Part shown: positions 1 through 30,782 of the stretch, piece by piece
How positions within the stretch are numbered: position 1 is the stretch's first letter
How the letters are laid out: every line of letters starts with the position of its first letter
NCBI GenBank assembly: GCA_964361095.1
Contig: CAYHZA010000001.1
Span: 1,456 to 65,455 of the forward strand
DNA length: 64,000 nt
Reading direction: 5' to 3'
Source of the DNA: an uncultured Candidatus Saccharibacteria bacterium
GTDB taxonomy: Bacteria; Patescibacteriota; Minisyncoccia; UBA6257; 2-01-FULL-56-20
Position numbers and translations under genes: made by a program
Notes under the pieces: model-generated
The model's input: only the letters and a program-made list of their open reading frames with translations
Database searches by the model: none
Told to the model about the DNA's origin: nothing

Positions 1-141
1 AAATCTCGAAAGCCATTCGAGCTTGTATACTACGAAGCGTATAAGTCAGAAAGTGATGCTAGAAAAAGAGAGGCCAGCTTAAAGTTGCGAAGTCGAGCAT
101 TCGCACAATTGAAGAAACGTATAACCGACAGCACCAAGTAA
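1..141 (+). CDS. GIY-YIG nuclease (YhbQ/UPF0213-like), C-terminal fragment; 5' end lies beyond the window edge
   Basis: Frame 1 translates to KSRKPFELVYYEAYKSESDARKREASLKLRSRAFAQLKKR... This aligns with the C-terminus of the complete GIY-YIG ORF at 30512-30772 (RRPFELVYYEAYRAEDDARTREHNLKLRSNALNQLKRRLKK). Stop TAA at 139-141. Confidence 0.55.
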   Translation, partial: KSRKPFELVYYEAYKSESDARKREASLKLRSRAFAQLKKRITDSTK

Positions 142-154
142 TTTGGTGTGGGGG
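142..154. repeat. Right terminal inverted repeat TTTGGTGTGGGGG of the GIY-YIG mini-element family
   Basis: Immediately follows the GIY-YIG stop codon. Same arm as 222-236, 8486-8498 and 30765-30782. Confidence 0.6.
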
Positions 155-161
155 TAAACTT

Positions 162-389
162 ATGTCAAAGGAAATCGCCACTAAAACTGAGAAAGAAATT
201 CACCCCCACACCAAAGGGATTTTTGGTGTGGGGGTGTGCATCAAGTGCAAGAAGTGTGGCACTAAGGTTCTTTCTATTACGCGCGGTAGTTTAACCCCAT
301 GTAAGTGTGGGGCTATTTCTGTCGATGGCTCTAAAGAGTTAGTGAGAGTTATCGGTAAGCCAGAGGATTATGAAGAAATCCACAAATAA
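162..389 (+). CDS. Small zinc-ribbon protein (CxxCxxC...CxC) carrying an in-frame 36-bp palindromic insertion
   Basis: 75-aa ORF with Cys pairs CIKCKKCG...PCKCG. Codons 14-25 (HPHTKGIFGVGV) are encoded by the palindrome at 201-236. No clear RBS. Confidence 0.35.
   Translation: MSKEIATKTEKEIHPHTKGIFGVGVCIKCKKCGTKVLSITRGSLTPCKCGAISVDGSKELVRVIGKPEDYEEIHK
201..236. repeat. Solo (empty) hairpin copy of the CCCCCACACC element: cacccccacaccaaa-gggatt-tttggtgtgggggtg
   Basis: Perfect 15-bp inverted repeat with a 6-nt loop. Length 36 is a multiple of 3 and sits inside ORF 162-389. Confidence 0.7.
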
Positions 390-432
390 ATTTATGGCAA
401 GGAAATTATCAATAAAGTGGTAAAATGAAGGT

Positions 433-1281
433 ATGGCAAAAACTATAAAAATATTTTTGATTGACGGCGAACCTAACGGCCTAAAAACCGCTGAATTAAG
501 TAATTGGGTTGGTCAAGCAATCGTTATTCCTAGAAATAAACTTAAAGAAATAAAACAACGCCCTGAATGTAACAAGCCAGCAGTTTATTTTCTGATCGGT
601 AAAGAGAGCGAAGAAGCACTCTTGCCTACTGCATATGTAGGAGAGGCAGAAAATTTATGGAATAGACTATCTACTCATGATAGCTCAAAGGATTTTTGGC
701 AAACCGCAGTAGCGTTTGTGAGTAAAGATAATAATTTAACAAAAGCCCATGTTAGGTATCTTGAGAGTAGATGCTTAACTTTAGCAACTAAAGCAAAAAG
801 GTTTAATTTAGAAAATGGCACAGAATCATCTTTACCTTCTTTATCTGAAGCAGATATTGCCGAGATGGAAGAATTTTTGGAAAACCTGAAACTTTTGTTT
901 TCTGCTCTTGGCTACCCAATTTTGCAAGAAGTTATTTCTAAAGAACAAAAAAATATATCAGACCCTCTTTTTACTTGTAGGGGCAAAGATGCTTTAGCAA
1001 CTGGTCGTATGACAAACGACGGCTTTGTTGTTTATAAAGATTCAACCGCAACAACCGATATTTCGAAGGCAGTTATTGATCGTAATCAAAAAATTATAGA
1101 AAAGTTATTAAAAAATAATTATCTCGAAAAATTAAATGACGGCTTATATATTTTTGTTAAGGACTACGTCTTTAATAGTCCCAGTGCCGCATCTGATATT
1201 ACACTAGGCAATTCTACTAGCGGTTGGAAAAAATGGAAAACGGAAAGTGGCAAGACATTAGAAGAGGTTTATAGAAAATAA
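433..1281 (+). CDS. GIY-YIG (T5orf172-like) nuclease with C-terminal DUF4357-like domain
   Basis: N-terminal motifs VYFLIGK...AYVGEAENLWNRLSTH (GIY...YIG...R...H). The C-terminal tail SPSAASDITLGNSTSGWKKWKTESGKTLEEV matches the DUF4357 pattern as I recall it. Confidence 0.6.
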   Translation: MAKTIKIFLIDGEPNGLKTAELSNWVGQAIVIPRNKLKEIKQRPECNKPAVYFLIGKESEEALLPTAYVGEAENLWNRLSTHDSSKDFWQTAVAFVSKDNNLTKAHVRYLESRCLTLATKAKRFNLENGTESSLPSLSEADIAEMEEFLENLKLLFSALGYPILQEVISKEQKNISDPLFTCRGKDALATGRMTNDGFVVYKDSTATTDISKAVIDRNQKIIEKLLKNNYLEKLNDGLYIFVKDYVFNSPSAASDITLGNSTSGWKKWKTESGKTLEEVYRK

Positions 1282-1283
1282 AT

Positions 1284-3095
1284 ATGGGAAAGCTAAAAGA
1301 CATTCCAAAAATTGATAGACCGCGCGAACGATTCCTCCAAAAAGGAGCTGACGCACTTTCAAAAAGTGATCTTTTGGCAATTCTTTTAGGCAGTGGCATA
1401 AAAGGTAAAAATGTCAGGGAACTTTCAGAGAGTATTATCAAAAAATTTGGCAAAAACTTTTTAAATATAACCGTTGATGATCTTTTGGAAATTTCAGGGA
1501 TTGGCCAAGCCAAGGCATTACAAATTACTTCTGCAATTTCTTTGGTAAAAAGATTCTATGCGGACGAAAAATCAAACGAGACTATTATTAAAAATTCTCA
1601 AGATGTCCTATCATTCACCTACGATTTAAGAGATAAGAAAAAAGAACACTTGGTTTGTTTATACCTTAACGCAAGAAATTCTCTCCTCAAAAAGGAAATT
1701 GTTAGCGTAGGCTTACTAGATAAAACATTGCTCCATCCAAGAGAAATTTTTTATCCGGCAACAGAATTAAACGCCGCTAGTGTTATTTTAATTCACAACC
1801 ACCCATCGGGCGATTCTTCGCCAAGCGAAAAAGATAATCAAATTGTTGAAAAAATAGTTCAAGCAGGAGAAATAATGGGAATACCTGTTATTGATTTCAT
1901 TATTATCTCCGAAAATAATCATTATAGTTTTTATGAAAAACTAAGAAAGCAAAAAGAGACTTTTGATTATGTCGCTGACGGAATACAAGGGACACTCTTT
2001 GCAATATTTGAAGCTGAAAAACCAGCCTATGAAATAACTGCTGAAAAAATTCAAGAAAATTATTTCTACATCCCACAAGTAAAAGAAAATCACATCCAAT
2101 TACATAATCGCAGATATATAGGAAATAAACACAAACTAATTGAATGGATTTTTTCTATTATAAACAAAGAATGTAGTGGAAATTCTTTTGCAGATGTTTT
2201 TGCTGGGACGGGGGCTGTATCTGCTGTGGCGACAAAACACTTTAAAAAAGTATTATTAAATGATTTTTTACATTCCAATTACATAATATACCGTGCCTTT
2301 TTTGGAAAAGAAGCGTGGGACAAAAATAAGATAGATAGCATTATTAAGAGCTATAATAATATTTATGGCGGAGATTTAGAAGATAATTATTTTTCCAAAA
2401 ACTTTGGCGGTAAATTTTTCAGCAATAATTCAGCTAAAATTATCGGCTTTATTAGGGAAAACATTGAAGAAAACAAAAACAATTTAACGGAAAGAGAATA
2501 TTTTATGCTGATTGCGTCATTGCTTTATACGGCTGATAAAATCGCTAATACCGTTGGACATTTTGATGCTTATTTTAAAAAAGATTTTGTAAATGATAGT
2601 TTTTTCATGAAACCGATTGATCCGATTGATACCCAAGAAATATCTATTTTTCAAGAAGACACGAATGTTCTGGCAAAAAAGATAAAAGCAGATGTGGTTT
2701 ATATTGATCCGCCCTATAATTCCAGACAATACAGTCGTTTTTATCATGTACTTGAAACATTGACCAAATGGGATAAGCCAAAACTTTATGGAGTTGCGCT
2801 AAAACCAGATCCAGAAAATATGAGCGATTACTGCCGAGCTAATGCCAAAGAAAAATTTGCAGAACTTGTGAGAGATATTGATGCTCAATTTTTGGTTGTT
2901 TCGTATAATAATACATACGATTCAAAAAGTAATTCATCAAAAAATAAAATCACACTTCAAGAAATTGAAAAAATCTTACAAGCAAAAGGTAAAACGAAAG
3001 TTTTTGAAAAAAATTACAGACATTTTAATGCCGGTAATACAAATTTCAATAATCACAAAGAGTATTTGTTCGTAACTAAAAACCAACATGAATAA
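1284..3095 (+). CDS. Fusion protein: N-terminal RadC/JAB (JAMM) domain plus C-terminal Dam-like (D12 class) N6-adenine DNA methyltransferase
   Basis: RadC motifs include the HNHPSGDSSPSEKD JAMM signature and the helix-hairpin-helix-like ISGIGQAKA. The methyltransferase half has RRYIGNKHKL (Dam N-terminal motif), FAGTGAVS (motif I) and DPPY (motif IV). It is one continuous 603-aa ORF. Confidence 0.7.
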   Translation: MGKLKDIPKIDRPRERFLQKGADALSKSDLLAILLGSGIKGKNVRELSESIIKKFGKNFLNITVDDLLEISGIGQAKALQITSAISLVKRFYADEKSNETIIKNSQDVLSFTYDLRDKKKEHLVCLYLNARNSLLKKEIVSVGLLDKTLLHPREIFYPATELNAASVILIHNHPSGDSSPSEKDNQIVEKIVQAGEIMGIPVIDFIIISENNHYSFYEKLRKQKETFDYVADGIQGTLFAIFEAEKPAYEITAEKIQENYFYIPQVKENHIQLHNRRYIGNKHKLIEWIFSIINKECSGNSFADVFAGTGAVSAVATKHFKKVLLNDFLHSNYIIYRAFFGKEAWDKNKIDSIIKSYNNIYGGDLEDNYFSKNFGGKFFSNNSAKIIGFIRENIEENKNNLTEREYFMLIASLLYTADKIANTVGHFDAYFKKDFVNDSFFMKPIDPIDTQEISIFQEDTNVLAKKIKADVVYIDPPYNSRQYSRFYHVLETLTKWDKPKLYGVALKPDPENMSDYCRANAKEKFAELVRDIDAQFLVVSYNNTYDSKSNSSKNKITLQEIEKILQAKGKTKVFEKNYRHFNAGNTNFNNHKEYLFVTKNQHE

Positions 3096-3993
3096 CAAAA
3101 TCAAAAGGTCCCCGTTATTTTATGTCGGGGATAAATACAAACTAATGAAGCAATTGGTAAATTTATTTCCCAAAGAAGTGAATAATTTTTACGAACCTTT
3201 TGTTGGCGGAGGCACTGTATTTTTGAACATTGAAGCGAAGAAGTATTTTTTAAATGACATAAACAAACATCTGATTAACATACATAAGTTTTTGATGAAA
3301 AGCGCAGATAATCCAAGCTCGTTTTTTAAAAGCGTTGGAAAAGTAATATCCAAATATAAATTATCCAAATCTTACAAAGAAGATATAATTCCAGATTCAC
3401 TAAAAAAAGAATGGAAAAAAACTTATTTTGCCCGATTTAACAAAGAGGGATACGAAAAATTGAGAGTGTGTGTGAATAATAACAAAAAAAATGACCCTCT
3501 GATTTTGTATATTTTGCTTATATACGGGTTTAACAGAATGTTGAGATTTAATGGTGGTGGCAAATTTAATCTGCCTGTCGGGAATGTTGATTTTAACAAA
3601 AATGTAGTTAATGCCCTAAATGGCTATTTTGATTTTGTAAATAATAAGAAAATCACAATTACATCGAATGATTTTAAAAAGTTTTTTTTAGAGAAACAAT
3701 ATTTTAAAAATGATTTTGTTTATTTAGATCCGCCCTACTTAATAACCGCAAGCGAATATAATAAGTTTTGGGATTCAAAATCTGAATCTGACTTGTTAAA
3801 CTTAATCGATAATTTAGACAAAAGAGGCGTTAAATTTGCTTTATCAAATGTTACACATTACAACGGAAGCAAAAATGACCTTTTGATAGAGTGGATGGGA
3901 CAATATAAGGTACACAAAATTGAAAGCAACTATATTAGCTATCACAATAATGGGAAAAAGATAATCAAAGAAGTCTTGATCACTAACTATTAA
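3088..3993 (+). CDS. Dam-like (D12 class) N6-adenine DNA methyltransferase
   Basis: FYVGDKYKL N-terminal motif, EPFVGGGTVF (motif I), LDPPY (motif IV). Overlaps the upstream ORF by 8 nt, so operon-like. Confidence 0.75.
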   Translation: MNNKIKRSPLFYVGDKYKLMKQLVNLFPKEVNNFYEPFVGGGTVFLNIEAKKYFLNDINKHLINIHKFLMKSADNPSSFFKSVGKVISKYKLSKSYKEDIIPDSLKKEWKKTYFARFNKEGYEKLRVCVNNNKKNDPLILYILLIYGFNRMLRFNGGGKFNLPVGNVDFNKNVVNALNGYFDFVNNKKITITSNDFKKFFLEKQYFKNDFVYLDPPYLITASEYNKFWDSKSESDLLNLIDNLDKRGVKFALSNVTHYNGSKNDLLIEWMGQYKVHKIESNYISYHNNGKKIIKEVLITNY

Positions 3994-3997
3994 AATT

Positions 3998-5515
3998 ATG
4001 AAAAAACGACAATCCGAATATAAACCATTATTATTTACGACAACAATGAGAAATCCTGAACGACTAAAGGATTTTTTAACCGTGCTTGTTGAATATGATG
4101 GCGAAATTTTAACAAACGAAATTATTGATAAAGTAGCTAAAATCTTGATTCAAAAAGGGTTATATCAACCCATGAAAATAACGCAAGTAGTAAAAGGTAA
4201 ATGGAAAAACGAAATAGAACTAAGCGAGGCTGAAACCGAAAAAGTATTTGATGAGAATCCGCAAAGCCATAAAGAGGCAGGTTTTGAAAAAGGTTGGCCA
4301 TCGAGATTTGATACTTGGTTTAAAATTGCCAAAGAACTTGGTTTTGTTTGGTATTGGCCAAATGAAGAAATAAAATTTTCCGAAAGCGGGAAAATGCTAT
4401 TGGATAAAGAAAAACCTGAAAACGAATTGATGGTTTTTGCTAATGCTTTCGCAAAATATCAGCGACAAAATCCGTTTCGTAGAGTTTTAAATAAAAATGT
4501 ACCATTGATATTGCTGATACAAACAATAAAACTCCTAGACAATGACCCTGCCTATAATGGCACGGGTATTTCAAGGTTAGAAATTCCGTTATTGCTCTGT
4601 TGGCAAAATGATAATGCCGAAAGTTTATATCGTGAAATAAAAAAGTTGCGTAAAAAATATGGCTATTCGCCAAGCAATGAGATAGTTTTAGATCTTTGCT
4701 ATGAATTATTAAACGAAACCAAAAGAGACGATAATTCTATCTTAGGTGATTATCCCGATGATTTTATTCGCAAAATGCGTTTAACTGGTTTATTTTCTTT
4801 GCGTGGTGGCGGTCGTTTCATTGACATCAACACAAAAGAAATTGCGACTGTAAATTATATTTTAGAAAATTATATTTCTTATCCAACCTTTACGACTGAA
4901 AAAGATTATTTTGATTATATTGGCAAAGTGGACACCAATTTGATTGCAACGCTCTCCGTCTATGAAACTCCTGTTAGAACTACTAAAGCGGAGTTGGAAA
5001 AATGGGTAAATCATTATGCGTGGGAATCAATTAAAACCGAGATGCTTAATTTAGCGCAGAAAAAATCTTCCGAAGATGATATTTTGCGGGTGATAGAACA
5101 GCCTTTGCGTTTAGAGTTTTTAACCTCTTTGGCTATTCTCAAAAAATTACCAAATGTTGTAGTAAAGCCAAATTTTGTTTCAGATGATGAGGGTTTACCG
5201 ACAAGCTTTGCTTCTGGTGGAAACCCAGATATTGAATGTCTAGAAGATAAGGACACCGTATTGATAGAAGTGACTTTACTAACAGGCACACAGCAACATA
5301 TTAGAGAGTCATTTTCAGTACACCGACATCTTGAGGAGTATGTAAAGAAAGGCACTAAATCATATTCTGTGTTTATCTCCCCCAAATCTTTCATTGATAC
5401 TGAACGCTATTTTGATTTTATCAAAAAGGATGGTTTGGAAGTGAGAATTTCGAATATCGATAAATTCGTCCTCGGTCTTGAAGAAAAGACAACATTGAAC
5501 GAAGCGACTTTATGA
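3998..5515 (+). CDS. Candidate restriction endonuclease (type IIS-like, family unassigned; possibly AlwI-like)
   Basis: 505-aa ORF starting 5 nt after the second methyltransferase gene. The C-terminal segment GGNPDIECLEDKDTVLIEVTLLTG resembles a PD-(D/E)xK core. Two same-strand N6A methyltransferases upstream are typical of asymmetric-site type IIS systems. Family assignment is by context and memory only. Confidence 0.35.
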   Translation: MKKRQSEYKPLLFTTTMRNPERLKDFLTVLVEYDGEILTNEIIDKVAKILIQKGLYQPMKITQVVKGKWKNEIELSEAETEKVFDENPQSHKEAGFEKGWPSRFDTWFKIAKELGFVWYWPNEEIKFSESGKMLLDKEKPENELMVFANAFAKYQRQNPFRRVLNKNVPLILLIQTIKLLDNDPAYNGTGISRLEIPLLLCWQNDNAESLYREIKKLRKKYGYSPSNEIVLDLCYELLNETKRDDNSILGDYPDDFIRKMRLTGLFSLRGGGRFIDINTKEIATVNYILENYISYPTFTTEKDYFDYIGKVDTNLIATLSVYETPVRTTKAELEKWVNHYAWESIKTEMLNLAQKKSSEDDILRVIEQPLRLEFLTSLAILKKLPNVVVKPNFVSDDEGLPTSFASGGNPDIECLEDKDTVLIEVTLLTGTQQHIRESFSVHRHLEEYVKKGTKSYSVFISPKSFIDTERYFDFIKKDGLEVRISNIDKFVLGLEEKTTLNEATL

Positions 5516-5553
5516 TTGTAAAAAATTAGAATCAATTTACGAGAGCTAAATTT

Positions 5554-7461
5554 ATGGAAGATATTAAAGCAACAATTCACGGAGACGCTACAAGTGATCA
5601 AATTGAAGCAATTGACCACATTGGCAGTCATGCAAGATTACTCGCTGGACCCGGAACGGGAAAAACAAAAACGCTTACTCGGCGCGTACTTTCTTTGATT
5701 CTCCAACATAATGCCGACCCCGATTCAATTCTCTTACTTACGTTCACTCGTTTAGCCGCCGCTCAACTGAAAGATGAGATCAAAAAAGTGTTAGAACCTT
5801 TGGGCAAAACCATTCCACAAGTATCAACGCTTCACTCCTTTGCATTAAGGCAGATTCTTTATAATTCGAGCAGAATTGACACATTACCAAGACCAATCAG
5901 AATAGCCGATGACTGGGAAGAACGGTATATCATTCAAGAAGATTTAAAAAAAGTTTTAAATCTCAAAGAAATTGGCGATGTTCAAAAATTGATCAATCAG
6001 CTTTCAACTGACTGGGAAACTTTGAGAATTGATGAAATTGGCTGGGAGCAACAATTTCCAAACCCCGCTTTTCTTGGTGCGTGGCGAAGCCACAAAGATC
6101 AATATGGCGAAACACTAAGGGCGGAACTTGTTTATCAACTGAAAAAGCAGTTAAACCAAAGCAGGGATTTTCAATTAGACAAAGAGTATAAACATATTCT
6201 GATTGACGAGTATCAAGACCTGAACGCTTGCGATCTTGCCATAGTCAATGAATTAGCAAAGCGAGGCGCGGAATTATTTGTTGCGGGAGATGATGACCAG
6301 AGTATCTACGGCTTCCGTTTCGCAACCCCCGCAGGTATAAGAAATTTTGAACAGATATATCAAAATTCCAAAAAATTGGCGTTAGAAATATGTTTTCGTT
6401 GTGATAAAAACATATTACATTCAGCAGAATTTGTAGCGAGCCTTGATCCTGCACGCTTGCCAAAACCAACACGACCAAAAGACGAAGCTGAAGATGGTGA
6501 GGTTTTGATAATTGGTTTTAAGGATCAAAGTCATGAAGCTGAAATTATAGCCAAGAAAATAAAAAGTTTGATTGACGCAGACATCAAGCCAGATCAAATC
6601 ACAATTTTACTAAGAAACGACCGAAACAGCTTATTATCCAAGCCGATTATTGAAGCCCTAAAAAAGTATAGCGTCGATGTATCTTTGACGACTGATTCGG
6701 AATTAGAAAATAACAAGGAGTATCGAACAGTTTTATCAATAATTCGTTTGTTGGTTGATCAAAATGATTGTTTAGCTTGGCGAACATTATTACAAATCAA
6801 CAAAACTAATGGCTTGGGCGATGAGTGTATAAAAAGTATATGGAATTATGCGCAAAGCAAGGGAATACGTTTTAGTGTGGCTTTACAAAAAATAGCCGAA
6901 TCTCCAAGCGAATTACAAAAGTTTGGCCAAAAAATAGCAAAATTTGTTTCCGAAATAAACGTGGCAATCGTGGAACTCAAAGCCATTGAAAGTCCGACCG
7001 AAGCGATAAACGCAACAGTTGATAAATTTATGGGTGAAGGAGAGATAAAAGAACAAGTGAAAAAATATTTTGTTGGAATTTTGGAGAATCAAGAAAAACC
7101 TGATCTTGAGAATTTAATTAAAATAGTAAGTACTTCGTCGGAATATATTGAGCAAGAAACAAAAGAAAACGCTGTTAATATACTCACTATGCACCAAGCA
7201 AAAGGATTATCTTTTGATGTATGTTTTATAGTTGGTGCGGAAGATGAATATATTCCCGGACGAAATACAGGAGATAAGGAGGGCGATGAAAGAAGATTAC
7301 TGTATGTGTCCATGACAAGAGCGAGGCATAAATTATTTATCAGCTATTGTAATAAACGAACCGGACAACAAAGACATTCAGGAAGTAATAGCGGAACAGA
7401 AAAAAGAACATTAACCAGATTTCTTAGAGATTCCAAAATCCCAATAAAACAGGTAGAATAA
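5554..7461 (+). CDS. UvrD/PcrA-like superfamily-1 DNA helicase
   Basis: Walker A AGPGTGKT. Motifs LLLTFTRLAAAQL, DEYQDLN, and the C-terminal ILTMHQAKGLSFD...RRLLYVSMTRARHKL. Confidence 0.8.
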   Translation: MEDIKATIHGDATSDQIEAIDHIGSHARLLAGPGTGKTKTLTRRVLSLILQHNADPDSILLLTFTRLAAAQLKDEIKKVLEPLGKTIPQVSTLHSFALRQILYNSSRIDTLPRPIRIADDWEERYIIQEDLKKVLNLKEIGDVQKLINQLSTDWETLRIDEIGWEQQFPNPAFLGAWRSHKDQYGETLRAELVYQLKKQLNQSRDFQLDKEYKHILIDEYQDLNACDLAIVNELAKRGAELFVAGDDDQSIYGFRFATPAGIRNFEQIYQNSKKLALEICFRCDKNILHSAEFVASLDPARLPKPTRPKDEAEDGEVLIIGFKDQSHEAEIIAKKIKSLIDADIKPDQITILLRNDRNSLLSKPIIEALKKYSVDVSLTTDSELENNKEYRTVLSIIRLLVDQNDCLAWRTLLQINKTNGLGDECIKSIWNYAQSKGIRFSVALQKIAESPSELQKFGQKIAKFVSEINVAIVELKAIESPTEAINATVDKFMGEGEIKEQVKKYFVGILENQEKPDLENLIKIVSTSSEYIEQETKENAVNILTMHQAKGLSFDVCFIVGAEDEYIPGRNTGDKEGDERRLLYVSMTRARHKLFISYCNKRTGQQRHSGSNSGTEKRTLTRFLRDSKIPIKQVE

Positions 7462-7508
7462 CAATAGAAATTTAAAGTCCGCCGAAAAGTTTTGGGGGCA
7501 AAGCCCAA

Positions 7509-7561
7509 GCAGGCGGGCAAAAAGGAAGGGGGTTGGGGGGAAGGAATTTTTGCTCGCCTGC
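7509..7561 (+). terminator. Hairpin with G-rich loop downstream of the helicase gene (possible terminator)
   Basis: gcaggcgggcaaaaa ... tttttgctcgcctgc (14/15 bp) enclosing the loop ggaagggggttggggggaaggaa. No clear T-tract. Confidence 0.3.
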
Positions 7562-7609
7562 TTCCGTTCCCGTCCCGTTTGAGCAAAGAAAAATGATAAA
7601 ATAACTTTT

Positions 7610-8392
7610 ATGAAAATCAAATCAAAACCACAAATCCTAGAACGGCGGAAAGAGATCGAGCAGGAGCTCTTGGATATGCTCAAAGAAACAGAGAGCGATT
7701 TTACTCTGGATCATGTCCGGGACGTTATTTTCCATGAGGAAGACAACGACGACATGATGAAAGTCGTAGCCATGTTTGATCGCGGAGGAGACGCTTCGGA
7801 ATTGAGTAATGTTCTTGAACTCGTAACCGACGCCTGGAATTACTTTCCACATAAAGTGCTTGGTGGCATCTCTCCGGCGGAGAAATTACTAGAGCACCAC
7901 AATAAAACTAAACTTATGAAAATCAACAACACATTCAAACTCATCATCGCTATCATAGTCTCCGAGCTTGCCGGTATCATCGGCTCGGTGTTTACCACAC
8001 CATCCATTGCTGGCTGGTACGCTGGGATTGCGAAGCCTGCTCTTAATCCTCCGGCGTGGGTATTCGGACCGGTCTGGACGACGCTCTTTGCGCTCATGGG
8101 CATCGCGGCCTTTCTCGTCTGGAAGAAAGGGCTGGATCGCAGAGATGTAAAAATCGCTCTTGGCATATTCCTCGGCCAGCTGGTCTTGAACACGCTTTGG
8201 TCAATTATCTTTTTCGGTCTGCATAGCCCCGGCGGTGCGCTGATTGAGATCGTATTCCTCTGGCTCGCCATTCTCGCCACGATCGTTGCGTTTTATAAAA
8301 TCTCCAAACCGGCGGCGTGGCTTCTGGTGCCATATATTCTTTGGGTCAGTTTCGCGATGTACTTAAACTATGCGATCTGGGCATTAAATTAA
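7610..8392 (+). CDS. tspO: TspO/MBR family membrane protein with ~100-aa N-terminal hydrophilic extension
   Basis: C-terminal 160 aa read WYAGIAKPALNPPAWVFGPVWTTLFALMGIAAFLVW, LGIFLGQLVLNTLWS and WLLVPYILWVSFA. This is typical of TspO. Confidence 0.6.
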   Translation: MKIKSKPQILERRKEIEQELLDMLKETESDFTLDHVRDVIFHEEDNDDMMKVVAMFDRGGDASELSNVLELVTDAWNYFPHKVLGGISPAEKLLEHHNKTKLMKINNTFKLIIAIIVSELAGIIGSVFTTPSIAGWYAGIAKPALNPPAWVFGPVWTTLFALMGIAAFLVWKKGLDRRDVKIALGIFLGQLVLNTLWSIIFFGLHSPGGALIEIVFLWLAILATIVAFYKISKPAAWLLVPYILWVSFAMYLNYAIWALN

Positions 8393-8468
8393 GCAATTAT
8401 GACTCGGTGCAATTTGCTTAATATTTCTTTAGTTAAGCAAATCGTCCCACGCTCACAAATTTGGTTTT

Positions 8469-8499
8469 ACCCCCACACCAAAAACTTTGGTGTGGGGGT
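8469..8499. repeat. Solo hairpin copy of the CCCCCACACC element: acccccacaccaaa-aac-tttggtgtgggggt
   Basis: Perfect 13-14-bp inverted repeat with a 3-nt loop in an intergenic region. Confidence 0.7.
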
Positions 8500-8551
8500 T
8501 TACGGCTCGGACCGGATTCAACTGGTGGCAAACTCTTACTCTCGGTACAAA

Positions 8552-8789
8552 GCTCGCCCCGTTAGATAATTTCATATCTAACGGGGCGAGCCACCCCAGT
8601 AGTACAGCGAAGCTGACTACGGGGCAGGCAAGGGCAACCAAGTGGGGAATCAGGGGTTACAGGTTCTCGTACTTGGCCAGCAATCCTTTCACCCCGTTAG
8701 ATGCAAAGTTATCTAACGGGGTGAATCTGATCCAAAACCACGGTAGGATACCCCAGTAGTAGAACGTGAAGCGTTCACTACGGGGCAGG
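8552..8789. repeat. Two tandem ~136-bp units, each a long hairpin (CCCCGTTAGAT...ATCTAACGGGG) followed by a second hairpin (CCCCAGTAGTA...ACTACGGGGCAGG)
   Basis: Unit A is 8552-8628 and unit B is 8688-8789. The outer stems covary (gctcg/cgagc versus ttcac/gtgaa) while the inner stem is conserved. That pattern suggests a selected RNA or DNA structure. Confidence 0.55.
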
Positions 8790-8888
8790 TTTGTACTCCT
8801 CCGCCCAGTCAAAAGTTCGAAAATCGTTGAGCAGGGCGAGCTTTGGAGTCAATACAAATTACCCGGGAATGTGCGGCGCCCTGTTAAG

Positions 8889-8914
8889 GCGAAGGTTTTA
8901 ATTCGGGAGTAATT
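8889..8914. repeat. 21-nt motif GCGAAGGTTTTAATTCGGGAG(+NAATT), copy 1, upstream of lipoprotein gene
   Basis: Identical 21-mer recurs at 10002-10022. Both copies lie ~100 bp upstream of a start codon. Confidence 0.5.
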
Positions 8915-8917
8915 ACA

Positions 8918-8946
8918 TTGACATTTAGTACGAAGCGTGCTATGAT
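8918..8946 (+). promoter_or_regulatory. Sigma70-type promoter TTGACA-17-TATGAT
   Basis: ttgaca (8918-8923), a 17-nt spacer, then tatgat (8941-8946). An RBS aaaggaga lies upstream of the ATG at 8989. Confidence 0.6.
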
Positions 8947-8988
8947 GTTTTCGGCACTTAACTGATAATCAAAAAGGAGAAACGGGAG

Positions 8989-9411
8989 ATGAAAACGTCG
9001 AAAGGTATCGTATTGTTTTGTGCGGTATTGATCATCCTTATTTCGTCGGCATGCAGAGAAATAAAGATGGTTCTCTCGCCTGAAATGACAGAGGAAGCGA
9101 CTGTCGCTGATCTCGTCTACACGCCGTCAAATCACGGGAGCGACATCAGCCCGACCATGAACATGAACGGAGACCTCGGCGTTGCATTTACGAGTATCGA
9201 CATTTTGGAACGGTATGCAGTAGTCTTCCAGTGCCAGCATGAAAAGTTCATAGTCCAGAGCGACCAGACGAAAGCGAAGGAGCTTTGGACGCGCCTGAAG
9301 AAAGACCAGAAGGTGACCGTCAGATACAGAGAAAGATACGAGGAAACATTCGACGACGAGAAACTCGTCGAACGACGTCTGAAGAAATATGATTTCATCG
9401 ACGCCAACTGA
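8989..9411 (+). CDS. Small secreted or lipoprotein of unknown function
   Basis: N-terminal signal peptide MKTSKGIVLFCAVLIILISSAC (lipobox-like ISSAC). Good RBS. GC-rich relative to neighbours. Confidence 0.5.
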   Translation: MKTSKGIVLFCAVLIILISSACREIKMVLSPEMTEEATVADLVYTPSNHGSDISPTMNMNGDLGVAFTSIDILERYAVVFQCQHEKFIVQSDQTKAKELWTRLKKDQKVTVRYRERYEETFDDEKLVERRLKKYDFIDAN

Positions 9412-9699: not shown

Positions 9700-10001
9700 T
9701 ACTACTTAAAAAATCGCAGTCTCGAACGATCCGCCAGCTGGCGGAGAGAGTCGAATTTCTAAAGGTCCCAGAGGGATTGCGACTTGTATTCAAAATCGTT
9801 ACGCTTTTGAACAAGTCGGGAAACTGAGATTTGTAACCCCGCTATGCGCGGACAAATCGGGAGCCTACCCGCGGAGCTCGGAAATCAGATGCCCCTTGTT
9901 GGGGCATTTCAGATTTCGCTTCTTGGATTTGTGTATCAGATTTGGCAAAATAATTTCAAAAACTTGCCCCGTTGGAAGCCGTAGGCTTTCTTTCGGGGTT
10001 T

Positions 10002-10027
10002 GCGAAGGTTTTAATTCGGGAGCAATT
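10002..10027. repeat. 21-nt motif GCGAAGGTTTTAATTCGGGAG(+NAATT), copy 2, upstream of ABC exporter gene
   Basis: 21/21 identical to 8889-8909. Confidence 0.5.
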
Positions 10028-10120
10028 GATTTCTGATTATTTTATAATGGGTTTTTGTGCCACTCCGATCGGGCTCAATCTTTTTATTGCTTAGTTTTCA
10101 TGTTTTACTTACTAAATAGG

Positions 10121-11908
10121 ATGAATACGTCTATTGAGAAACAAGAAATAAAAACTGGTCTCGTAGCTATCTGGAGATTTGTGCGACCATTTAAAAAAGA
10201 GCTTATTATACTTATTATTTCTGGTTTAGTATCGGCAGTTGCCAATGGCTCCGTGCCTTATATAACGGGGCGATTCTTTGATGCCCTCATTAATGTATCA
10301 GAACATCGAATTGTTTCTGATGTCGGTCCTCTTCCTTTGTGGGCTTTCTTACTTTCCTTGTGGGCAATCATCCAACTTATCGCTAATAACATTGATTGGA
10401 TAAGTGATCGCTTAGCGCGTCAAGTAGATGCTAAGGTTCATTTTAATATTCAAACCCAAGGTTTTCTTCATCTCTTTCGTCTTCCACTTTCTTATCATAA
10501 GAGCAAACACATCAATGGAGAGTTGCAAAAAATAAGCGCGGCCGGTTGGAGGGTATCGAGCATTATACGGAACGTAATTGATATCGCACCACAGTTTCTC
10601 AGTATATTAATTGGTATTATCTTGTCTGCCAGTATTAATCTAATGCTGGCAGGCGTTCTTCTTATCGGAGTCCTTCTCTATGTGCTTCTTCTTATGAGAA
10701 TTCTTATGCCGGTCGCCAAAATAGATTTGGCTGCCCACCGTTTCTGGAACGAGAGTTGGGATGATTCAGCAGCAGCGGTGATGCAGATCGAAAGTGTTAA
10801 GCAAGCCACGGCAGAAGAGCATGAATCACAAAAAGTAAAGTCTGCGCTACTCGGTAAAACATACGACCTATGGCATAAGCTTGGAACTATTTGGAGTAAT
10901 ATTAGTTTTTTCCAGCGAATAATCGTCTTCGGGACGCAACTTGTGGTTTTTATTATGTCTGTTCAATTGGTGTCGAATGGAATAATCACTATCGGAGAAC
11001 TTCTGGCTTTGAATGGTTATGCTGCAATGTTCTTCGGACCATTCGTGTCGCTTGGTTTTAGCTGGCAGACAATTCAAAATGGAATCACTTCAGCCGTTCA
11101 CGTCAATGAAATATTCTCTGAGAAAACAGAAAAGTATATTCCCGAAAATGCCGTCGAGTTAAAGACATTAATCGGAAAAGTCATATTTGAAAACGTGACT
11201 TTTAGTTATGAATTGAATCAGCCGATAGTACTCAAGGATGTTAGCTTTGAAGTTCAGCCAGGTCAGGTTGTTGCTCTCGTTGGTGAGTCGGGGGTTGGTA
11301 AAAGCACGGCCATCTCGCTTATCTCTGGGTATAATTTTCCTACACAAGGCAAGGTGTTAATTGATGATATAGATACGAGGAAACTGAATCTAACCAGTCT
11401 AAGAAAACACATTGCCGTTGTTCCTCAGGAAGTGGCTCTTTTTAACGATACTATTAAGGCTAATATACGATATGGATCATTTGAGGCTAACGATGAGGAA
11501 GTTTTTCGTGTAGCTCGAGAAGCCCATATGGATGAATTTATACAAGCCCTTCCGGACAAATATGAATCTCTAGTGGGTGAACGAGGTATCAAGCTGTCAG
11601 TTGGTCAAAAACAACGAGTAGCCATTGCCCGAGCAATGTTGCGGAATCCGGCCATTCTTATTTTAGACGAACCAACAAGCGCTTTGGACGCAAAAACAGA
11701 GAAAATCGTCACGGAGGCTCTTGAAAAACTAATGACGGGAAGAACTACCTTTATCATTGCCCACCGACTCTCAACAGTTCGTAAGGCGAACGTTATTCTT
11801 GTATTTGAAAAAGGGAAAATCGTTGAGAGGGGAACTCATCAAGAACTTATAGAACGCGAGAAGGGTACGTATCTACACCTTTACGAATACCAGATTGGGC
11901 TACATTAA
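10121..11908 (+). CDS. ABC transporter, fused permease/ATP-binding exporter (MsbA-like)
   Basis: Six predicted TM helices. Walker A GESGVGKST, ABC signature LSVGQKQR, Walker B ILILDEPTSALD. The listed ORF begins with TTG at 10055. The internal ATG at 10121 (MNTSIEK...) is the likelier start. Confidence 0.85.
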   Translation: MNTSIEKQEIKTGLVAIWRFVRPFKKELIILIISGLVSAVANGSVPYITGRFFDALINVSEHRIVSDVGPLPLWAFLLSLWAIIQLIANNIDWISDRLARQVDAKVHFNIQTQGFLHLFRLPLSYHKSKHINGELQKISAAGWRVSSIIRNVIDIAPQFLSILIGIILSASINLMLAGVLLIGVLLYVLLLMRILMPVAKIDLAAHRFWNESWDDSAAAVMQIESVKQATAEEHESQKVKSALLGKTYDLWHKLGTIWSNISFFQRIIVFGTQLVVFIMSVQLVSNGIITIGELLALNGYAAMFFGPFVSLGFSWQTIQNGITSAVHVNEIFSEKTEKYIPENAVELKTLIGKVIFENVTFSYELNQPIVLKDVSFEVQPGQVVALVGESGVGKSTAISLISGYNFPTQGKVLIDDIDTRKLNLTSLRKHIAVVPQEVALFNDTIKANIRYGSFEANDEEVFRVAREAHMDEFIQALPDKYESLVGERGIKLSVGQKQRVAIARAMLRNPAILILDEPTSALDAKTEKIVTEALEKLMTGRTTFIIAHRLSTVRKANVILVFEKGKIVERGTHQELIEREKGTYLHLYEYQIGLH

Positions 11909-13473: not shown

Positions 13474-13619
13474 ATTGCCACAATTATACTCCTAAAAGCT
13501 TTCAAGTTTCATCCTGGACGTTGAGCAAAATTAATTTACCCCGATGCGCGACTTTGGGCAGGCGTACCCCATATCCAAAAGTCGCTATTTAAGCACAATC
13601 GTGCTAAGGTGTATAGACA

Positions 13620-14021
13620 ATGAAGCCGGTTAATAAGGTAAAAATCGACTTAGATAAAAAGTTCCAAAAGGTGATAGAAACACCGGCGGGTTTTGATTTC
13701 TTTGTGGCAATTCATGATTTCGTTGAACACATTGAGTCGAACGCATCGCTTTCCGCCAGTCTTTCGTCCCGCGTGAAATTGAACCAAGAATTGAATATTC
13801 CCAATAAATACGCTTATTTGAAACAGATCTATCAAGGGCTCGAAGATGCCGAAACGAAATCAAATGCCGATTTGGGTCATGCGAGATACGCGGTGCTCAT
13901 AGAACTGAATCGGATCCGTGGCAAAGAGGTTTCGGAAAGCAATTCGTTTTGGAAAAAACGGGAACTGTTCAGGAGATTGACGAGCGAAATCTACCAGAGA
14001 TTGAATCCCACTACGGTATAA
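13620..14021 (+). CDS. Hypothetical protein
   Basis: 133-aa ORF followed by hairpins and a terminator. Confidence 0.45.
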   Translation: MKPVNKVKIDLDKKFQKVIETPAGFDFFVAIHDFVEHIESNASLSASLSSRVKLNQELNIPNKYAYLKQIYQGLEDAETKSNADLGHARYAVLIELNRIRGKEVSESNSFWKKRELFRRLTSEIYQRLNPTTV

Positions 14022-14023
14022 AT

Positions 14024-14090
14024 CCCGTTAGAAATCCGCCCTGTCTTGCTACGGGCGGCAGTTGCCTTTGGGAGGCTTGTTTCTAACGGG
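14024..14090. repeat. Long hairpin CCCGTTAGAAA...TTTCTAACGGG (member of the CCCGTTA-type palindromic repeats)
   Basis: 11-bp terminal stem around a structured 45-nt interior. The stem motif is related to the hairpins at 8556 and 8692. Confidence 0.45.
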
Positions 14091-14097
14091 ATAAATA

Positions 14098-14130
14098 AAA
14101 AATACCCCCGATTATCGGGGGTATTTTTTA
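14098..14130. terminator. Bidirectional rho-independent terminator aaaaaataccccc g-attat-cgggggtatttttt
   Basis: GC stem flanked by an A-tract and a T-tract. Lies between the convergent genes 13620-14021 (+) and csp (-). Confidence 0.7.
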
Positions 14131-14142
14131 AGTGTCAGCGAT

Positions 14143-14340
14143 TTATTCGCGTGACACGTTCGTGGCGCTCGGGCCCTTCTCTCCATCAACGACTTCAAAA
14201 GTGACGATATCGCCAACTTTAAGTTCGTCGAATGTTACACCTTGTAACTCCTTGGAGTGAAAGAAAAGGTCCTTCGTTTCGCCTTCACGGGTAATGAATC
14301 CAAATCCTCTATCCGTGAGTGTTTTTATGGTTCCTTTCAT
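14143..14340 (-). CDS. cspA: Cold-shock protein (CspA family)
   Basis: MKGTIKTLTDRGFGFITREG...DLFFHSKEL...GDIVTFEV. RNP1-like motif present. Confidence 0.9.
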   Translation of the reverse strand: MKGTIKTLTDRGFGFITREGETKDLFFHSKELQGVTFDELKVGDIVTFEVVDGEKGPSATNVSRE

Positions 14341-14503
14341 GCAATTTTGTTTTTTACCTAGAAATTCGACTACGTCTCTTGGTTTGGTTACCCTTTAATC
14401 ATACCAAAGATATACAATTTGTCAATCTTCGAGAAGTTTGGGCTAGTAAAAAACGACGCCCGGCTAAGTTTGACCGGGCGTCACGTTGGTGTTTCAGGCG
14501 AGC

Positions 14504-15601
14504 TCATAGGGTTATCCCCACGAGCTCGTCTGTCAGTTCATCCACAGAGAGAATGCGGTCAATACGCGCCGCATTTGTTCCTACCGTAAAGATAGGAAGA
14601 TCGGGAGTGTTATTGCAATCCACGGCACTGAGGAGCGCGTTGCAGATGCAGAATGCCTCATAACCTTCGAGAGCAAGACAAGTCATGCGGCCATCTTTCC
14701 CTTTGTGGAGCAGATATTGCTTATCGCAGACAAGTGGTCGTCCGTGCGAAAGCGCTTGTCGGTATCCCGGTGATGAATTGATCACGCGGAACGGCATGCC
14801 CGAAGGCGAGCCCGGATTCACCGCAACCTCGATGTCCTCCGCGCGCGCGGCAACGATGGCGCGTTTAAATTCTTCCGATGCGCCACTTTCGTGCGTTGCG
14901 GCAAAACGGGTTCCGATCTGTACACCATCGGCTCCGGTTTTGATCCAGTGCACGATGTCTTCGTGCGTATAGATACCACCCGCCACGATGACCGGGAAGT
15001 TGCCGTTTTTCTGTGCGGATTCTTTTACGGGTCCGAAGATCTCCTCCAGTTGAAATTCCGGCTTGGGAATATCTTCCGCCTTGAAGCCAAGGTGTCCGCC
15101 CGCAAGCGGTCCTTCGAGAACCACTGCGTCCGGCATTCGTCCGTAACGATTCCAGCGTCGACAGATAAGCTCCAATGCGCGTCCGGAAGAAACAATGGGA
15201 ATAAGCGCCACCTGCGCGTTTCCCACGGTTTCCGGAAGAGTCATCGGCAGACCTGCGCCGGCAAGAATGATATCTACTCCGCCTTCAAGTGCGCCCTCGA
15301 TAGAAGGAACATACGTTTTTTCAACGAGGACCATGCAATTGATCGCAATCGCGCCCTTATTTTCCGAAAGTCGCCTTGCTTCTTCGATTTCGAGCTTGGC
15401 GGCTTCCCGATGGCCCACCTTGAGACCAATTCTTCGCTCAACCATTTTGTCTAAGGCAACGAAGGATACTGTTCCGACGCCGCCTCTACGTGCAACTGCT
15501 CCGGCAAGACGCGCGAGCGATACGCCCGCGCCCATGCCTCCCTGGATAAAGATTACTTTGCGATCCAGGCCGCGGACGGCAATAGTCGGCAACGGCACCA
15601 T
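14504..15601 (-). CDS. Nitronate monooxygenase / NPD-family FMN oxidoreductase (FabK-like)
   Basis: IQGGMGAGVS motif and GADGVQIGTRF. The likely start is the internal ATG (MVPLPTIAV...), preceded by gagagggggg. Confidence 0.75.
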   Translation of the reverse strand: MVPLPTIAVRGLDRKVIFIQGGMGAGVSLARLAGAVARRGGVGTVSFVALDKMVERRIGLKVGHREAAKLEIEEARRLSENKGAIAINCMVLVEKTYVPSIEGALEGGVDIILAGAGLPMTLPETVGNAQVALIPIVSSGRALELICRRWNRYGRMPDAVVLEGPLAGGHLGFKAEDIPKPEFQLEEIFGPVKESAQKNGNFPVIVAGGIYTHEDIVHWIKTGADGVQIGTRFAATHESGASEEFKRAIVAARAEDIEVAVNPGSPSGMPFRVINSSPGYRQALSHGRPLVCDKQYLLHKGKDGRMTCLALEGYEAFCICNALLSAVDCNNTPDLPIFTVGTNAARIDRILSVDELTDELVGITL

Positions 15602-30482: not shown

Positions 30483-30782
30483 GTGGCACGCCCCCACACC
30501 TAACGAGTTTTATGTTCTACATCTATATGTTAAAGAGCAAAAAGGATAATATGTTATATGTAGGTTCTACTGGTGATCTACGAGAAAGGTTTGCTTTGCA
30601 TAATGCAGGGAAAATAGTTTCTACCAAAGGTCGCCGCCCGTTTGAACTGGTTTATTATGAAGCTTATCGCGCCGAGGATGATGCCCGTACACGCGAGCAT
30701 AACCTAAAGCTTCGTTCTAATGCCCTAAACCAGTTGAAACGCAGATTGAAGAAAAGTCTCGAAACTCGTTAGGTGTGGGGGC
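30393..30782 (+). mobile_element. GIY-YIG mini-element: recoded transketolase 3' end, 18-bp terminal inverted repeats (gcccccacacctaacgag / ctcgttaggtgtgggggc) and the GIY-YIG gene
   Basis: Inverted repeats lie at 30490-30507 and 30765-30782. Upstream of the left repeat is a synonymous, AT-rich recoding of the host gene end. Host sequence resumes at 30783. Confidence 0.7.
30512..30772 (+). CDS. GIY-YIG nuclease (YhbQ/UPF0213-like, 86 aa)
   Basis: MLYVGSTGDLRERFALHN (GIY...YIG...R...H). The stop codon lies inside the right inverted repeat. Confidence 0.8.
   Translation: MFYIYMLKSKKDNMLYVGSTGDLRERFALHNAGKIVSTKGRRPFELVYYEAYRAEDDARTREHNLKLRSNALNQLKRRLKKSLETR

Follow-up and report, generated by a model that had tools for sequence, protein, structure and literature searches.

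RadC and a conserved linker as an N-terminal module of a Type IIS restriction-modification methyltransferase

RadC is present in most bacterial lineages and is a member of core competence regulons, and for decades it has had no established function. The core SigX competence regulon of streptococci contains radC alongside dprA, ssbB, recA and comEA/EC. In DpnII strains, dpnA, the gene of the single-stranded DNA (ssDNA) methylase, is co-regulated in the SigX regulon, as is dpnB. In this study, we analyzed a gene in which RadC is fused to an adenine-specific DNA methyltransferase (MTase). The gene was found in a 64,000-nucleotide stretch of DNA from an uncultured Candidatus Saccharibacteria bacterium (GCA_964361095.1, contig CAYHZA010000001.1, positions 1,456 to 65,455 of the forward strand), and this whole stretch is called the window below. 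Its product combines RadC, a linker and M1, the first MTase of a Type IIS restriction-modification (R-M) operon that also encodes a second MTase (M2) and a restriction endonuclease (R).

Fusions of RadC to other proteins have been catalogued before. The listed partners are ArdC-N, a DnaG-like primase and a DinG/RAD3-like (DinG/YoaA-like) helicase (Iyer et al. 2011, 2017; DinG review 2025), and a methyltransferase is not among the partners named in the accessible portions of these surveys. The catalogued proteins resemble the present one in that a RadC JAB domain is joined to an enzyme, there of replication or of ssDNA, and in that function is deduced from context alone. They differ in that the partner here is the MTase of an R-M operon and that the full-length RadC, including its helix-hairpin-helix (HhH) domain, is used. 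The DinG review 2025 also places RadC-like domains structurally next to JAMM metalloproteases rather than nucleases, and treats the RadC-like DinG as unstudied. In our literature search, the fusion of RadC to an MTase was undescribed.

The other described relatives each share a part of the locus. In the AlwI, BspD6I, PleI and MlyI Type IIS systems, the gene order is M1-M2-R as it is here, both MTases are of the D12 class, and the R of the window matches PF09491 and BspD6I; unlike in these systems, M1 of the window bears a 280-amino-acid (aa) extension made of RadC and a tether. A Lactococcus lactis plasmid carries an annotated homologous M1-M2-AlwI operon whose M1 is without RadC. Stand-alone RadC/YicR (UPF0758; NF000642, PDB 2qlc) has the same HhH N-terminal domain and the same JAB domain with E...HxH...S..D, whereas the RadC of the fusion is covalently attached to an MTase, falls in separate clades and is followed by a conserved tail. 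M.SsoII-type MTases have an N-terminal regulatory DNA-binding domain, and their autoregulation is established. These enzymes, a helix-turn-helix (HTH)-D12 fusion (cluster P0491) and the L. lactis M1 are alike in having an accessory domain at the N-terminus of the operon's first MTase, but RadC is not an HTH domain, no conserved operator accompanies it and its catalytic metal site is retained. The component families and the layout of a standard Type IIS R-M operon are known. What appears to be undescribed is that RadC recurs as a portable module at the N-terminus of R-M MTases from three families, that this module has a conserved tether predicted to be disordered, and that clamp-motif-like tails occur across the D12 MTase lineage.

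The fusion gene and its conservation

The fusion gene and its parts are as follows (M1 denotes the MTase domain).

1284..3095, + strand: RadC-linker-M1 fusion, a single ATG open reading frame (ORF) of 603 aa that heads the R-M core
1296..1517, + strand: UPF0758_N / HhH domain of RadC, aa 5-78 (Pfam PF20582, 4e-22)
1587..1940, + strand: RadC-type JAB domain, aa 102-219 (PF04002, 1e-37; PDB 2qlc, 7e-26)
~1743-1835, + strand: JAMM residues E154, H171, H173, S181 and D184, inside the JAB domain
1950..2129, + strand: linker or tether, aa 223-282, conserved yet predicted to be disordered
1986..2000, + strand: QGTLF, aa 235-239, a pentapeptide resembling a clamp-binding motif by consensus comparison
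2115..3092, + strand: M1, D12-class N6-adenine MTase domain (PF02086, 2e-36; PADLOC MTase_II PDLC03373, 5e-124)
2199-2213, + strand: M1 motif I, FAGTG (F306-G310), of the FxGxG type
2706-2717, + strand: M1 motif IV, DPPY (D475-Y478), following motif I

An earlier sequence-only reading had described a single 603-aa ORF with a RadC/JAB region (JAMM signature and HhH) and a Dam-like MTase with motifs I and IV, and Pfam, NCBIfam and the alignment all agreed with this description. The first 219 aa scored 218 bits against the RadC equivalog model NF000642, for which the NCBIfam cut-off is 180. Because this cut-off is exceeded, the RadC half is of the full-length "housekeeping type" with an HhH domain and not of the short prophage type. 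ArdC-N and zincin peptidase domains were both without a Pfam match in the fusion protein. The MethyltransfD12 match covered aa 278-536 (2e-36), and the PADLOC MTase_II reference model (339 aa) aligned to aa 269-599 only. Motif I precedes motif IV, the order of D12-class, Dam-family, alpha-type enzymes.

The catalytic residues of both halves were then compared among homologs. In an alignment of 36 homologs, E154, H171, H173 and D184 were invariant and S181 was conserved in at least 90%; the residues of motifs I and IV were invariant too, T309 nearly so. The JAMM pattern was intact in 62/63 fusions, and FAGTG and DPPY were conserved in 52/52. An AlphaFold2 (AF2) model built with 88 diverse sequences gave predicted local distance difference test (pLDDT) values of 90-96 for the MTase and ~80-87 for RadC, with a predicted template modelling score of 0.56. 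As judged from its conserved JAMM site, the RadC half appears to be catalytically intact.

We next asked how widely the fusion occurs. Among 5.8 billion proteins searched, at least 120 clusters (90% identity) of fusion homologs were recovered, 77-100% identical and all of 601-606 aa with the same three domains. Among the source names of these clusters are several Patescibacteria lineages, Nitrospirae, Deltaproteobacteria, Saprospiraceae and Nanoarchaeota. When one genome per GTDB species was scanned, 72 loci were detected in as many species-level genomes, mostly Patescibacteria with many other phyla as well, and 57 complete fusion ORFs were extracted from them. The sequence-only reading had called the fusion unusual. 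This held in so far as no description was found in the literature, but the architecture is not rare in nature, and its public labels are 'DNA repair protein RadC' or 'adenine-specific DNA-methyltransferase' only. The cassette is abundant in Patescibacteria and other uncultured groundwater lineages, and the annotation "DNA repair protein RadC" is misleading there.

From aa 199 to aa 300 of the window ORF, no ATG, GTG or TTG stands in frame, so that the MTase can be made only as a fusion. The ratio of non-synonymous to synonymous substitution rates (dN/dS) against the window copy was 0.04-0.17 for HhH, 0.02-0.13 for JAB, 0.05-0.18 for the linker and 0.03-0.09 for M1, with dS ranging from 0.3 to saturation. 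These results demonstrate that the fusion is real and obligate and that every segment of it is under purifying selection. The idea that an error of sequencing or assembly, or a frameshift, made one ORF out of two genes, or that the fusion is a decaying read-through product, has nothing to recommend it beyond the general rarity of such architectures, and it can be dismissed with near certainty given the same frame and length, with no stop or frameshift between the domains, in the clusters and complete ORFs of independent assemblies, the dN/dS of 0.02-0.18 at dS up to >2 and the intact catalytic motifs.

Decayed or rearranged copies were also seen (L021, L051, L053, L068 and L073; P0481, P0490 and P0476; L054 at 9953-11164), among them truncated M1 genes, an insertion inside M1 (L068), R fragments and M1 genes from which RadC had been deleted. 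The RadC-deleted M1 genes retain the linker peptide (L054: VQGTLFESLEIAKPAY). Since such copies exist, the cassette is lost as well as gained.

The RadC-linker module and its Q-x-x-L-F peptide

RadC and its linker form a portable module of ~260 aa that recombines independently of the MTase. In the class B loci (L037, L039-L048, L050, L055), RadC was 78-92% identical to that of the window and the D12 MTase 42-46%. DNA homology of these loci with the window stopped at ~2137; M2 was not in its usual place, and a distant AlwI-like R stood directly next, followed by an N6_N4-type MTase. Divergence was mosaic inside class A as well, where dS at locus L012 was 1.3-3.2 in RadC versus 0.28 in M1.

Other MTases carry the same module. 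Clustering at 50%, which covered 1.84 billion representatives, left only about two full clusters with the RadC-D12 architecture (P0008, P0122). Closely related full-length RadCs were found on C5 MTases (P0129, P0133, P0137, P0211) and on an N6_N4 MTase (P0187), and further RadC-C5 fusions were P0271-P0277, L064 and L065. The last two loci encode a 589-aa RadC-C5 MTase, with a RadC 92% identical to that of the window, and downstream of it a probable restriction endonuclease (REase) and a Vsr-like gene. For this C5 enzyme the unfused form (325-332 aa) is the norm, with >110 clusters at 83-89% identity that start 8 residues before motif I, whereas the fused form was found in only ~7 clusters, with RadCs of two sub-lineages. 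In a neighbour-joining tree of RadC domains, the fused RadCs formed one or two clades apart from ~20 ordinary RadCs of 219-244 aa, and D12 and C5 fusions were interleaved within the fused clades. These results show that the module has been grafted onto three MTase families (D12, C5 and N6_N4), and that the fusion in the window is one case of a broader pattern.

A separate observation was made on the short contig L066, where a 936-aa ORF at 1612-4422 combines a RadC 88% identical to that of the window and a QMNFF linker with a motif I of the C5 kind (FCGAGG) and a C-terminal part that bears weak similarity to M1. This ORF may be a RadC-C5-D12 triple fusion.

The linker is the part shared by all fusions irrespective of the MTase. 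Its post-JAB peptide reads [DE]Y[VA]x[DE]Gx-Q-x-x-L-F-[DA]-L-L-E-x-E-K-P-x-Y, and the corresponding peptide of the window, spanning Q235/L238/F239, is DYVADGIQGTLFAIFEAEK. The invariant linker residues of the 36-homolog alignment include Y229, Q235, L238, F239, P247 and Y249. The core Q-x-x-[LMF]-F was present in 57/57 complete fusion ORFs; its inner residues vary (QGTLF, QATLF, QKSLF, QASLF, QVALF, QLTLF and others), with Q, L and F fixed. In an AF2 model from a shallow alignment, which was a mediocre one, aa 223-282 had pLDDT values of 22-28. In the model with 88 diverse sequences, aa 225-251 were still at ~30, without secondary structure, and the linker was undocked; over both models its pLDDT was 22-33. 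As the linker is conserved and its pLDDT is low, it is selected yet predicted to be flexible, a combination typical of short linear motifs.

The peptide was also found outside the fusions. Strict Q..[LMIF]F occurred in the short N-terminal tails of 23/91 non-RadC relatives of M1 compared to a shuffle mean of 2.2 and maximum of 9, an enrichment among related sequences that is indicative only and no true P value. One example is the N-terminal MSAAQLALF, which degenerates to QLTLL, QLSLI or QLQLL in relatives; other tails read AQYLLFDP and QRQLFEDE. The tail of P0471, MQRTLFDLSGFEKSAF, aligns with and is homologous to the window's QGTLFAIFEAEKPAY. Different accessory domains stand before a similar peptide in P0491 (417 aa), an HTH_3-D12 fusion with QLSLGF in its linker, and in P0154 (558 aa), where the D12 MTase is fused to a LexA DNA-binding domain plus an S24 peptidase and the linker contains QLPLF. 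Ordinary RadCs were without Q-x-x-L-F, and the only matches among them were fragments of fusions, one reading QLSLF. These results indicate that the Q-x-x-L-F tail is native to the D12 MTase lineage, and that the N-terminus of M1's MTase family is a hotspot for accessory domains, each of which is then followed by a clamp-motif-like peptide. The likely history is that RadC was fused upstream of a D12 MTase that already had the tail, and that RadC and tail then moved together to C5 and N6_N4 MTases.

A candidate mechanism and its alternatives

The bacterial beta-clamp-binding motif is Q-phi-x-L-F (QL[S/D]LF), in which positions 1, 4 and 5 are the most important; among its natural variants are QMGLF of B. 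subtilis DnaE, which binds weakly, and QLSFF of MutS. Clamp motifs also serve transposases of mobile elements, and they can function across phyla and even with PCNA. The linker motif fits the clamp consensus at positions 1, 4 and 5, and canonical forms (QLALF, QLPLF, QLSLF and QLSLGF) are found in relatives. Like the known clamp binders (Pol III alpha, Pol IV, MutS, Hda and IS transposases; QL[S/D]LF or QLxLxL), the fusion presents Q1 and L4-F5 in a peptide that is disordered or terminal, the motif is kept while its flanks vary, and it is used by horizontally mobile genes; unlike in those proteins, position 2 is mostly Gly, and the peptide is a candidate clamp binder. Our literature search returned no report of a clamp motif in an R-M MTase.

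We propose that M1 would act as the strand-1 MTase of a mobile Type IIS (AlwI/BspD6I-family) R-M cassette, in which adenine methylation of an asymmetric site would be shared between M1 and M2, one strand each, and R would cut unmodified DNA. M1 carries an accessory N-terminal module made of RadC, with non-specific DNA binding by HhH and a Zn-JAB domain, and of the tether of ~60 residues that is predicted to be disordered. Through this tether, the enzyme would be recruited by a conserved replication factor of the host, for which the beta sliding clamp is the most probable candidate, or, in a wider form of the proposal, to nascent or incoming DNA. Newly made unmodified sites could then be methylated before R meets them. 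RadC would act on the same DNA intermediate, which HhH would bind and on which JAB would add a metal-dependent hydrolytic step. As an outcome, a toxic R-M cassette would become established, and be kept, more easily in hosts of many unrelated kinds. The proposal builds on the observed architecture, selection, modularity and motif distribution; the partner of the Q-x-x-L-F motif and the activity of RadC are the parts that we infer.

In its general form, the proposal has the module serve for targeting and processing: methylation would be tied to replicating DNA by a clamp-type tether, or else to incoming DNA, and RadC would act on the same intermediate. In this form we hold the proposal tentatively, at somewhat less than an even chance. 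The replisome and ssDNA partners of other RadCs were counted in its favor. The stricter form is doubtful, though possible: here the fusions would be replisome-tethered maintenance MTases docked on the beta clamp, with HhH and JAB of RadC acting on nascent or hemimethylated DNA. The sequence-only reading had suggested that modification might be coupled to the processing of ssDNA intermediates. A coupling of modification to the processing of DNA intermediates is plausible, and the tether resembling a clamp binder, together with the co-regulation of radC and dpnA in competence regulons, made it somewhat more so. The strict conservation of the JAMM residues and the repeated capture of the whole 260-aa module, and not of the tail alone, argue that RadC catalysis matters to the fusion.

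Several points weigh against this proposal. The position-2 Gly (QGTLF) predicts a weak or modest affinity for the clamp, as judged by the consensus. Conservation spans ~25 residues (DYVADG.Q..LF.LLE.EKP.Y), which exceeds what a minimal clamp motif needs, so another binding partner is possible. Position 5 deviates in three distant fusion lineages (P0187 QITLS, P0137 QYGIS, P0132 QYALS), and the motif is degenerate or missing in many unfused relatives, whose enrichment is, as said, only indicative. A few copies stand on short contigs binned as DPANN archaea, which lack a beta clamp. The contribution of RadC is speculative, because no RadC has an established biochemical activity.

In eukaryotes, the maintenance methyltransferase DNMT1 is recruited to replication forks by PCNA through a PIP-box. 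The likeness to the fusion would be conceptual, namely a short clamp-binding peptide that would tether an MTase and allow prompt methylation of nascent DNA. DNMT1 is eukaryotic, performs C5 methylation and is unrelated as a protein, whereas the bacterial case is one that we only infer. The conserved Q-x-x-L-F tether suggests that some R-M MTases are recruited by a host replication factor, for which our literature search found no earlier report. If true, this would be a bacterial counterpart of DNMT1-PCNA and a general strategy of clamp recruitment that lets toxic R-M cassettes establish in unrelated hosts, and it would account for modification staying ahead of restriction in the many hosts of mobile, potentially lethal cassettes. 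The fusion also gives RadC a functional partner that can be tested. Read as a "Rosetta stone", it implies that RadC shares substrate, time and place with DNA methylation; if so, the physiological arena of RadC would be the processing of post-replicative or post-uptake DNA in connection with methylation.

The best-surviving alternative is a variant of this proposal that gives the clamp no role. RadC would target the MTase, in the manner of DpnA, to incoming ssDNA or to recombination heteroduplexes in natural transformation, and acquired DNA, or the chromosome after uptake, would be methylated before restriction. The place of radC in the core SigX regulon and the co-regulation of dpnA and dpnB in DpnII strains fit this variant. 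So does the host range, as most hosts are Patescibacteria, which are thought to depend on DNA uptake. However, there are no competence genes in the conserved neighbourhood, RadC is reportedly dispensable for transformation, and the Q-x-x-L-F tether on unfused relatives is left unexplained. We consider this variant unlikely.

RadC might instead be a regulatory domain that occupies the slot of HTH and LexA and controls expression or timing, M before R, on entry into a cell. HTH-type domains do stand at the N-termini of M1 homologs, both HTH_3 in P0491 and an HTH-like extension of 80 aa in the L. lactis M1; similar tails were seen in P0150, P0169 and P0175, and LexA in P0154. The cassette has no C-protein, and the autoregulation of M.SsoII-type enzymes is a precedent. 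However, homology between copies begins <=10 nucleotides (nt) upstream of the start codon, so that there is no conserved operator or promoter, and the module also works on MTases that are unrelated, as is the DNA upstream of them. DNA binding by HhH domains is non-specific, and the strictly conserved JAMM residues would be superfluous for pure DNA binding. A regulatory role is improbable on these grounds.

Equally improbable is a role of JAB as a peptidase that cleaves the linker and frees the MTase, or that cleaves R or a host factor, and in this way controls the balance of R and M. Such a role would agree with the JAMM metalloproteases as structural neighbours in the DinG review, with a linker that is conserved and predicted to be disordered, with the self-cleaving LexA/S24 module at the equivalent position in P0154, and with the existence of peptidase-processed polyvalent proteins. 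However, RadC-type JABs are argued to have no groove that could take a ubiquitin-like tail. The linker motif is already present in unfused MTases without JAB (P0471, P0182), and no Gly-Gly-type site is evident in the linker.

The sequence-only reading had also raised an anti-defence adaptation, in which RadC-MTase would shield the DNA of an invading element from restriction by the recipient. Orphan MTases are common anti-restriction tools, and RadC-like domains are known in polyvalent proteins and in ArdC fusions of conjugative elements. The carriage by phages, plasmids or conjugative elements that is expected of polyvalent proteins was not seen: relatives numbered 0 in IMG/VR viral contigs, and fused copies 0 in 72,556 plasmid and 50,697 phage records. 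Rather, the R-M operons are complete and chromosomal, with the cognate REase always next in intact operons and housekeeping genes in the flanks. No element ends are shared, and leading-region studies do not mention RadC. These results spoke against the suggestion, and we regard it as very unlikely.

Operon, defence island and mobility of the cassette

The genes around the fusion are listed below.

433..1281, + strand: DUF4357 / PDC-S14 gene (PF14267, 9e-19; PADLOC PDC-S14, 1e-106), an optional fourth cassette member
3088..3993, + strand: M2, second Dam-family D12 MTase (TIGR00571, 9e-44; PDLC03383, 2e-107)
3998..5515, + strand: R, AlwI/BspD6I-family Type IIS restriction endonuclease (PF09491, 3e-42; PADLOC REase_II, 3e-131)
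5554..7461, + strand: UvrD/GajB-like helicase, an island neighbour outside the conserved cassette

The placement of the fusion in an R-M operon, as read earlier from the sequence, was borne out. The start of M2 overlaps the stop of the fusion ORF by 8 nt, the AlwI-family REase comes next, and BspD6I subunits (PDB) match R at 8e-11 with their catalytic domains included. The GC content is 0.28-0.38 up to ~7400 and then 0.45-0.50, and the remaining window is ordinary chromosome with genes for ribonucleotide reductase, MetRS, LeuRS, SecD and tRNAs. On the strength of these neighbours, the GC step and the chromosomal flanks, the fusion ORF heads a Type IIS R-M operon as its first MTase, and this operon lies on a chromosomal defence island of low GC content.

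The DUF4357 gene stops 3 nt before the start of the fusion ORF, and its protein has weak GIY-YIG and RAMA similarity. It accompanies the cassette in ~13/72 loci, either directly upstream of RadC-M1 or downstream of R; examples elsewhere are L056 at 14308-15135 and L057 at 13548-14372. That this gene travels with the cassette suggests that it is functionally linked to the R-M system.

The cassette is horizontally mobile across phyla, and its transfer is exact to the gene. DNA homology with other loci starts at 1274-1283 (at 432 in those that include the DUF4357 gene) and runs to 5515-5526. These limits coincide with gene edges, and flanks or element ends in common were not found; transposon-like ends were rejected on this account. 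A 162-kb Nitrospirae contig carries the cassette between Complex I genes and two-component systems, and this chromosomal placement shows that cross-phylum transfer is real. M1-M2-R synteny was conserved in class A loci. The identity of R fell into three bands (81-98%, 46-53% and 26-34%) while that of M1 and M2 stayed at ~75-98%, which indicates that R has been swapped among loci.

The UvrD/GajB-like helicase and a DUF7695 gene were considered as further cassette members and rejected, since they are not conserved across loci and are absent from the shared homology block. No GajA-like partner was seen beside the helicase (5554-7461). Positions 1-140 of the window encode the C-terminal end of a small GIY-YIG protein. 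With PDC-S14, the GajB-like helicase and the GIY-YIG protein, the region is a composite defence island. In a scan of 1-8000 for promoters and terminators, counts were at chance level.

The recognition site was sought through 5-mer depletion in ~280 kb of host flanks, where GAGTC (observed/expected (O/E) 0.89-0.91) and GGATC (0.86-0.96) gave no signal. The most depleted 5-mers in window positions 8400-64000 and the flanks of L004-L055 were GCWGC (O/E 0.39 in the window) and CCWGG (0.51). This depletion points to other R-M pressures, unrelated to this cassette.

Together with a TspO gene, the island is bracketed by a palindrome resembling repetitive extragenic palindromic (REP) elements, ACCCCCACACCAAA(N)TTTGGTGTGGGGGT, whose stem is 15 bp long. 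This palindrome lies at 142-153, 201-236 and 8468-8500, with variants near 30492/30769 and 53678/53802, and has 15 matches in the window versus 3.8 expected. Bracketing of the island by this palindrome was seen in this window only. The first ~24 codons of the ORF at 162-389 run through the palindrome, and for this reason the true DUF7695 start is probably near 235. The hairpin-rich region 8380-9000 had no match in an Rfam search. Within it, the intergenic stretch after TspO (8540-8800) contains a ~140-nt unit in duplicate, and either copy has a hairpin CCCCGTTAGAT..ATCTAACGGGG and then CCCCAGTAGTA..CTACGGGG.

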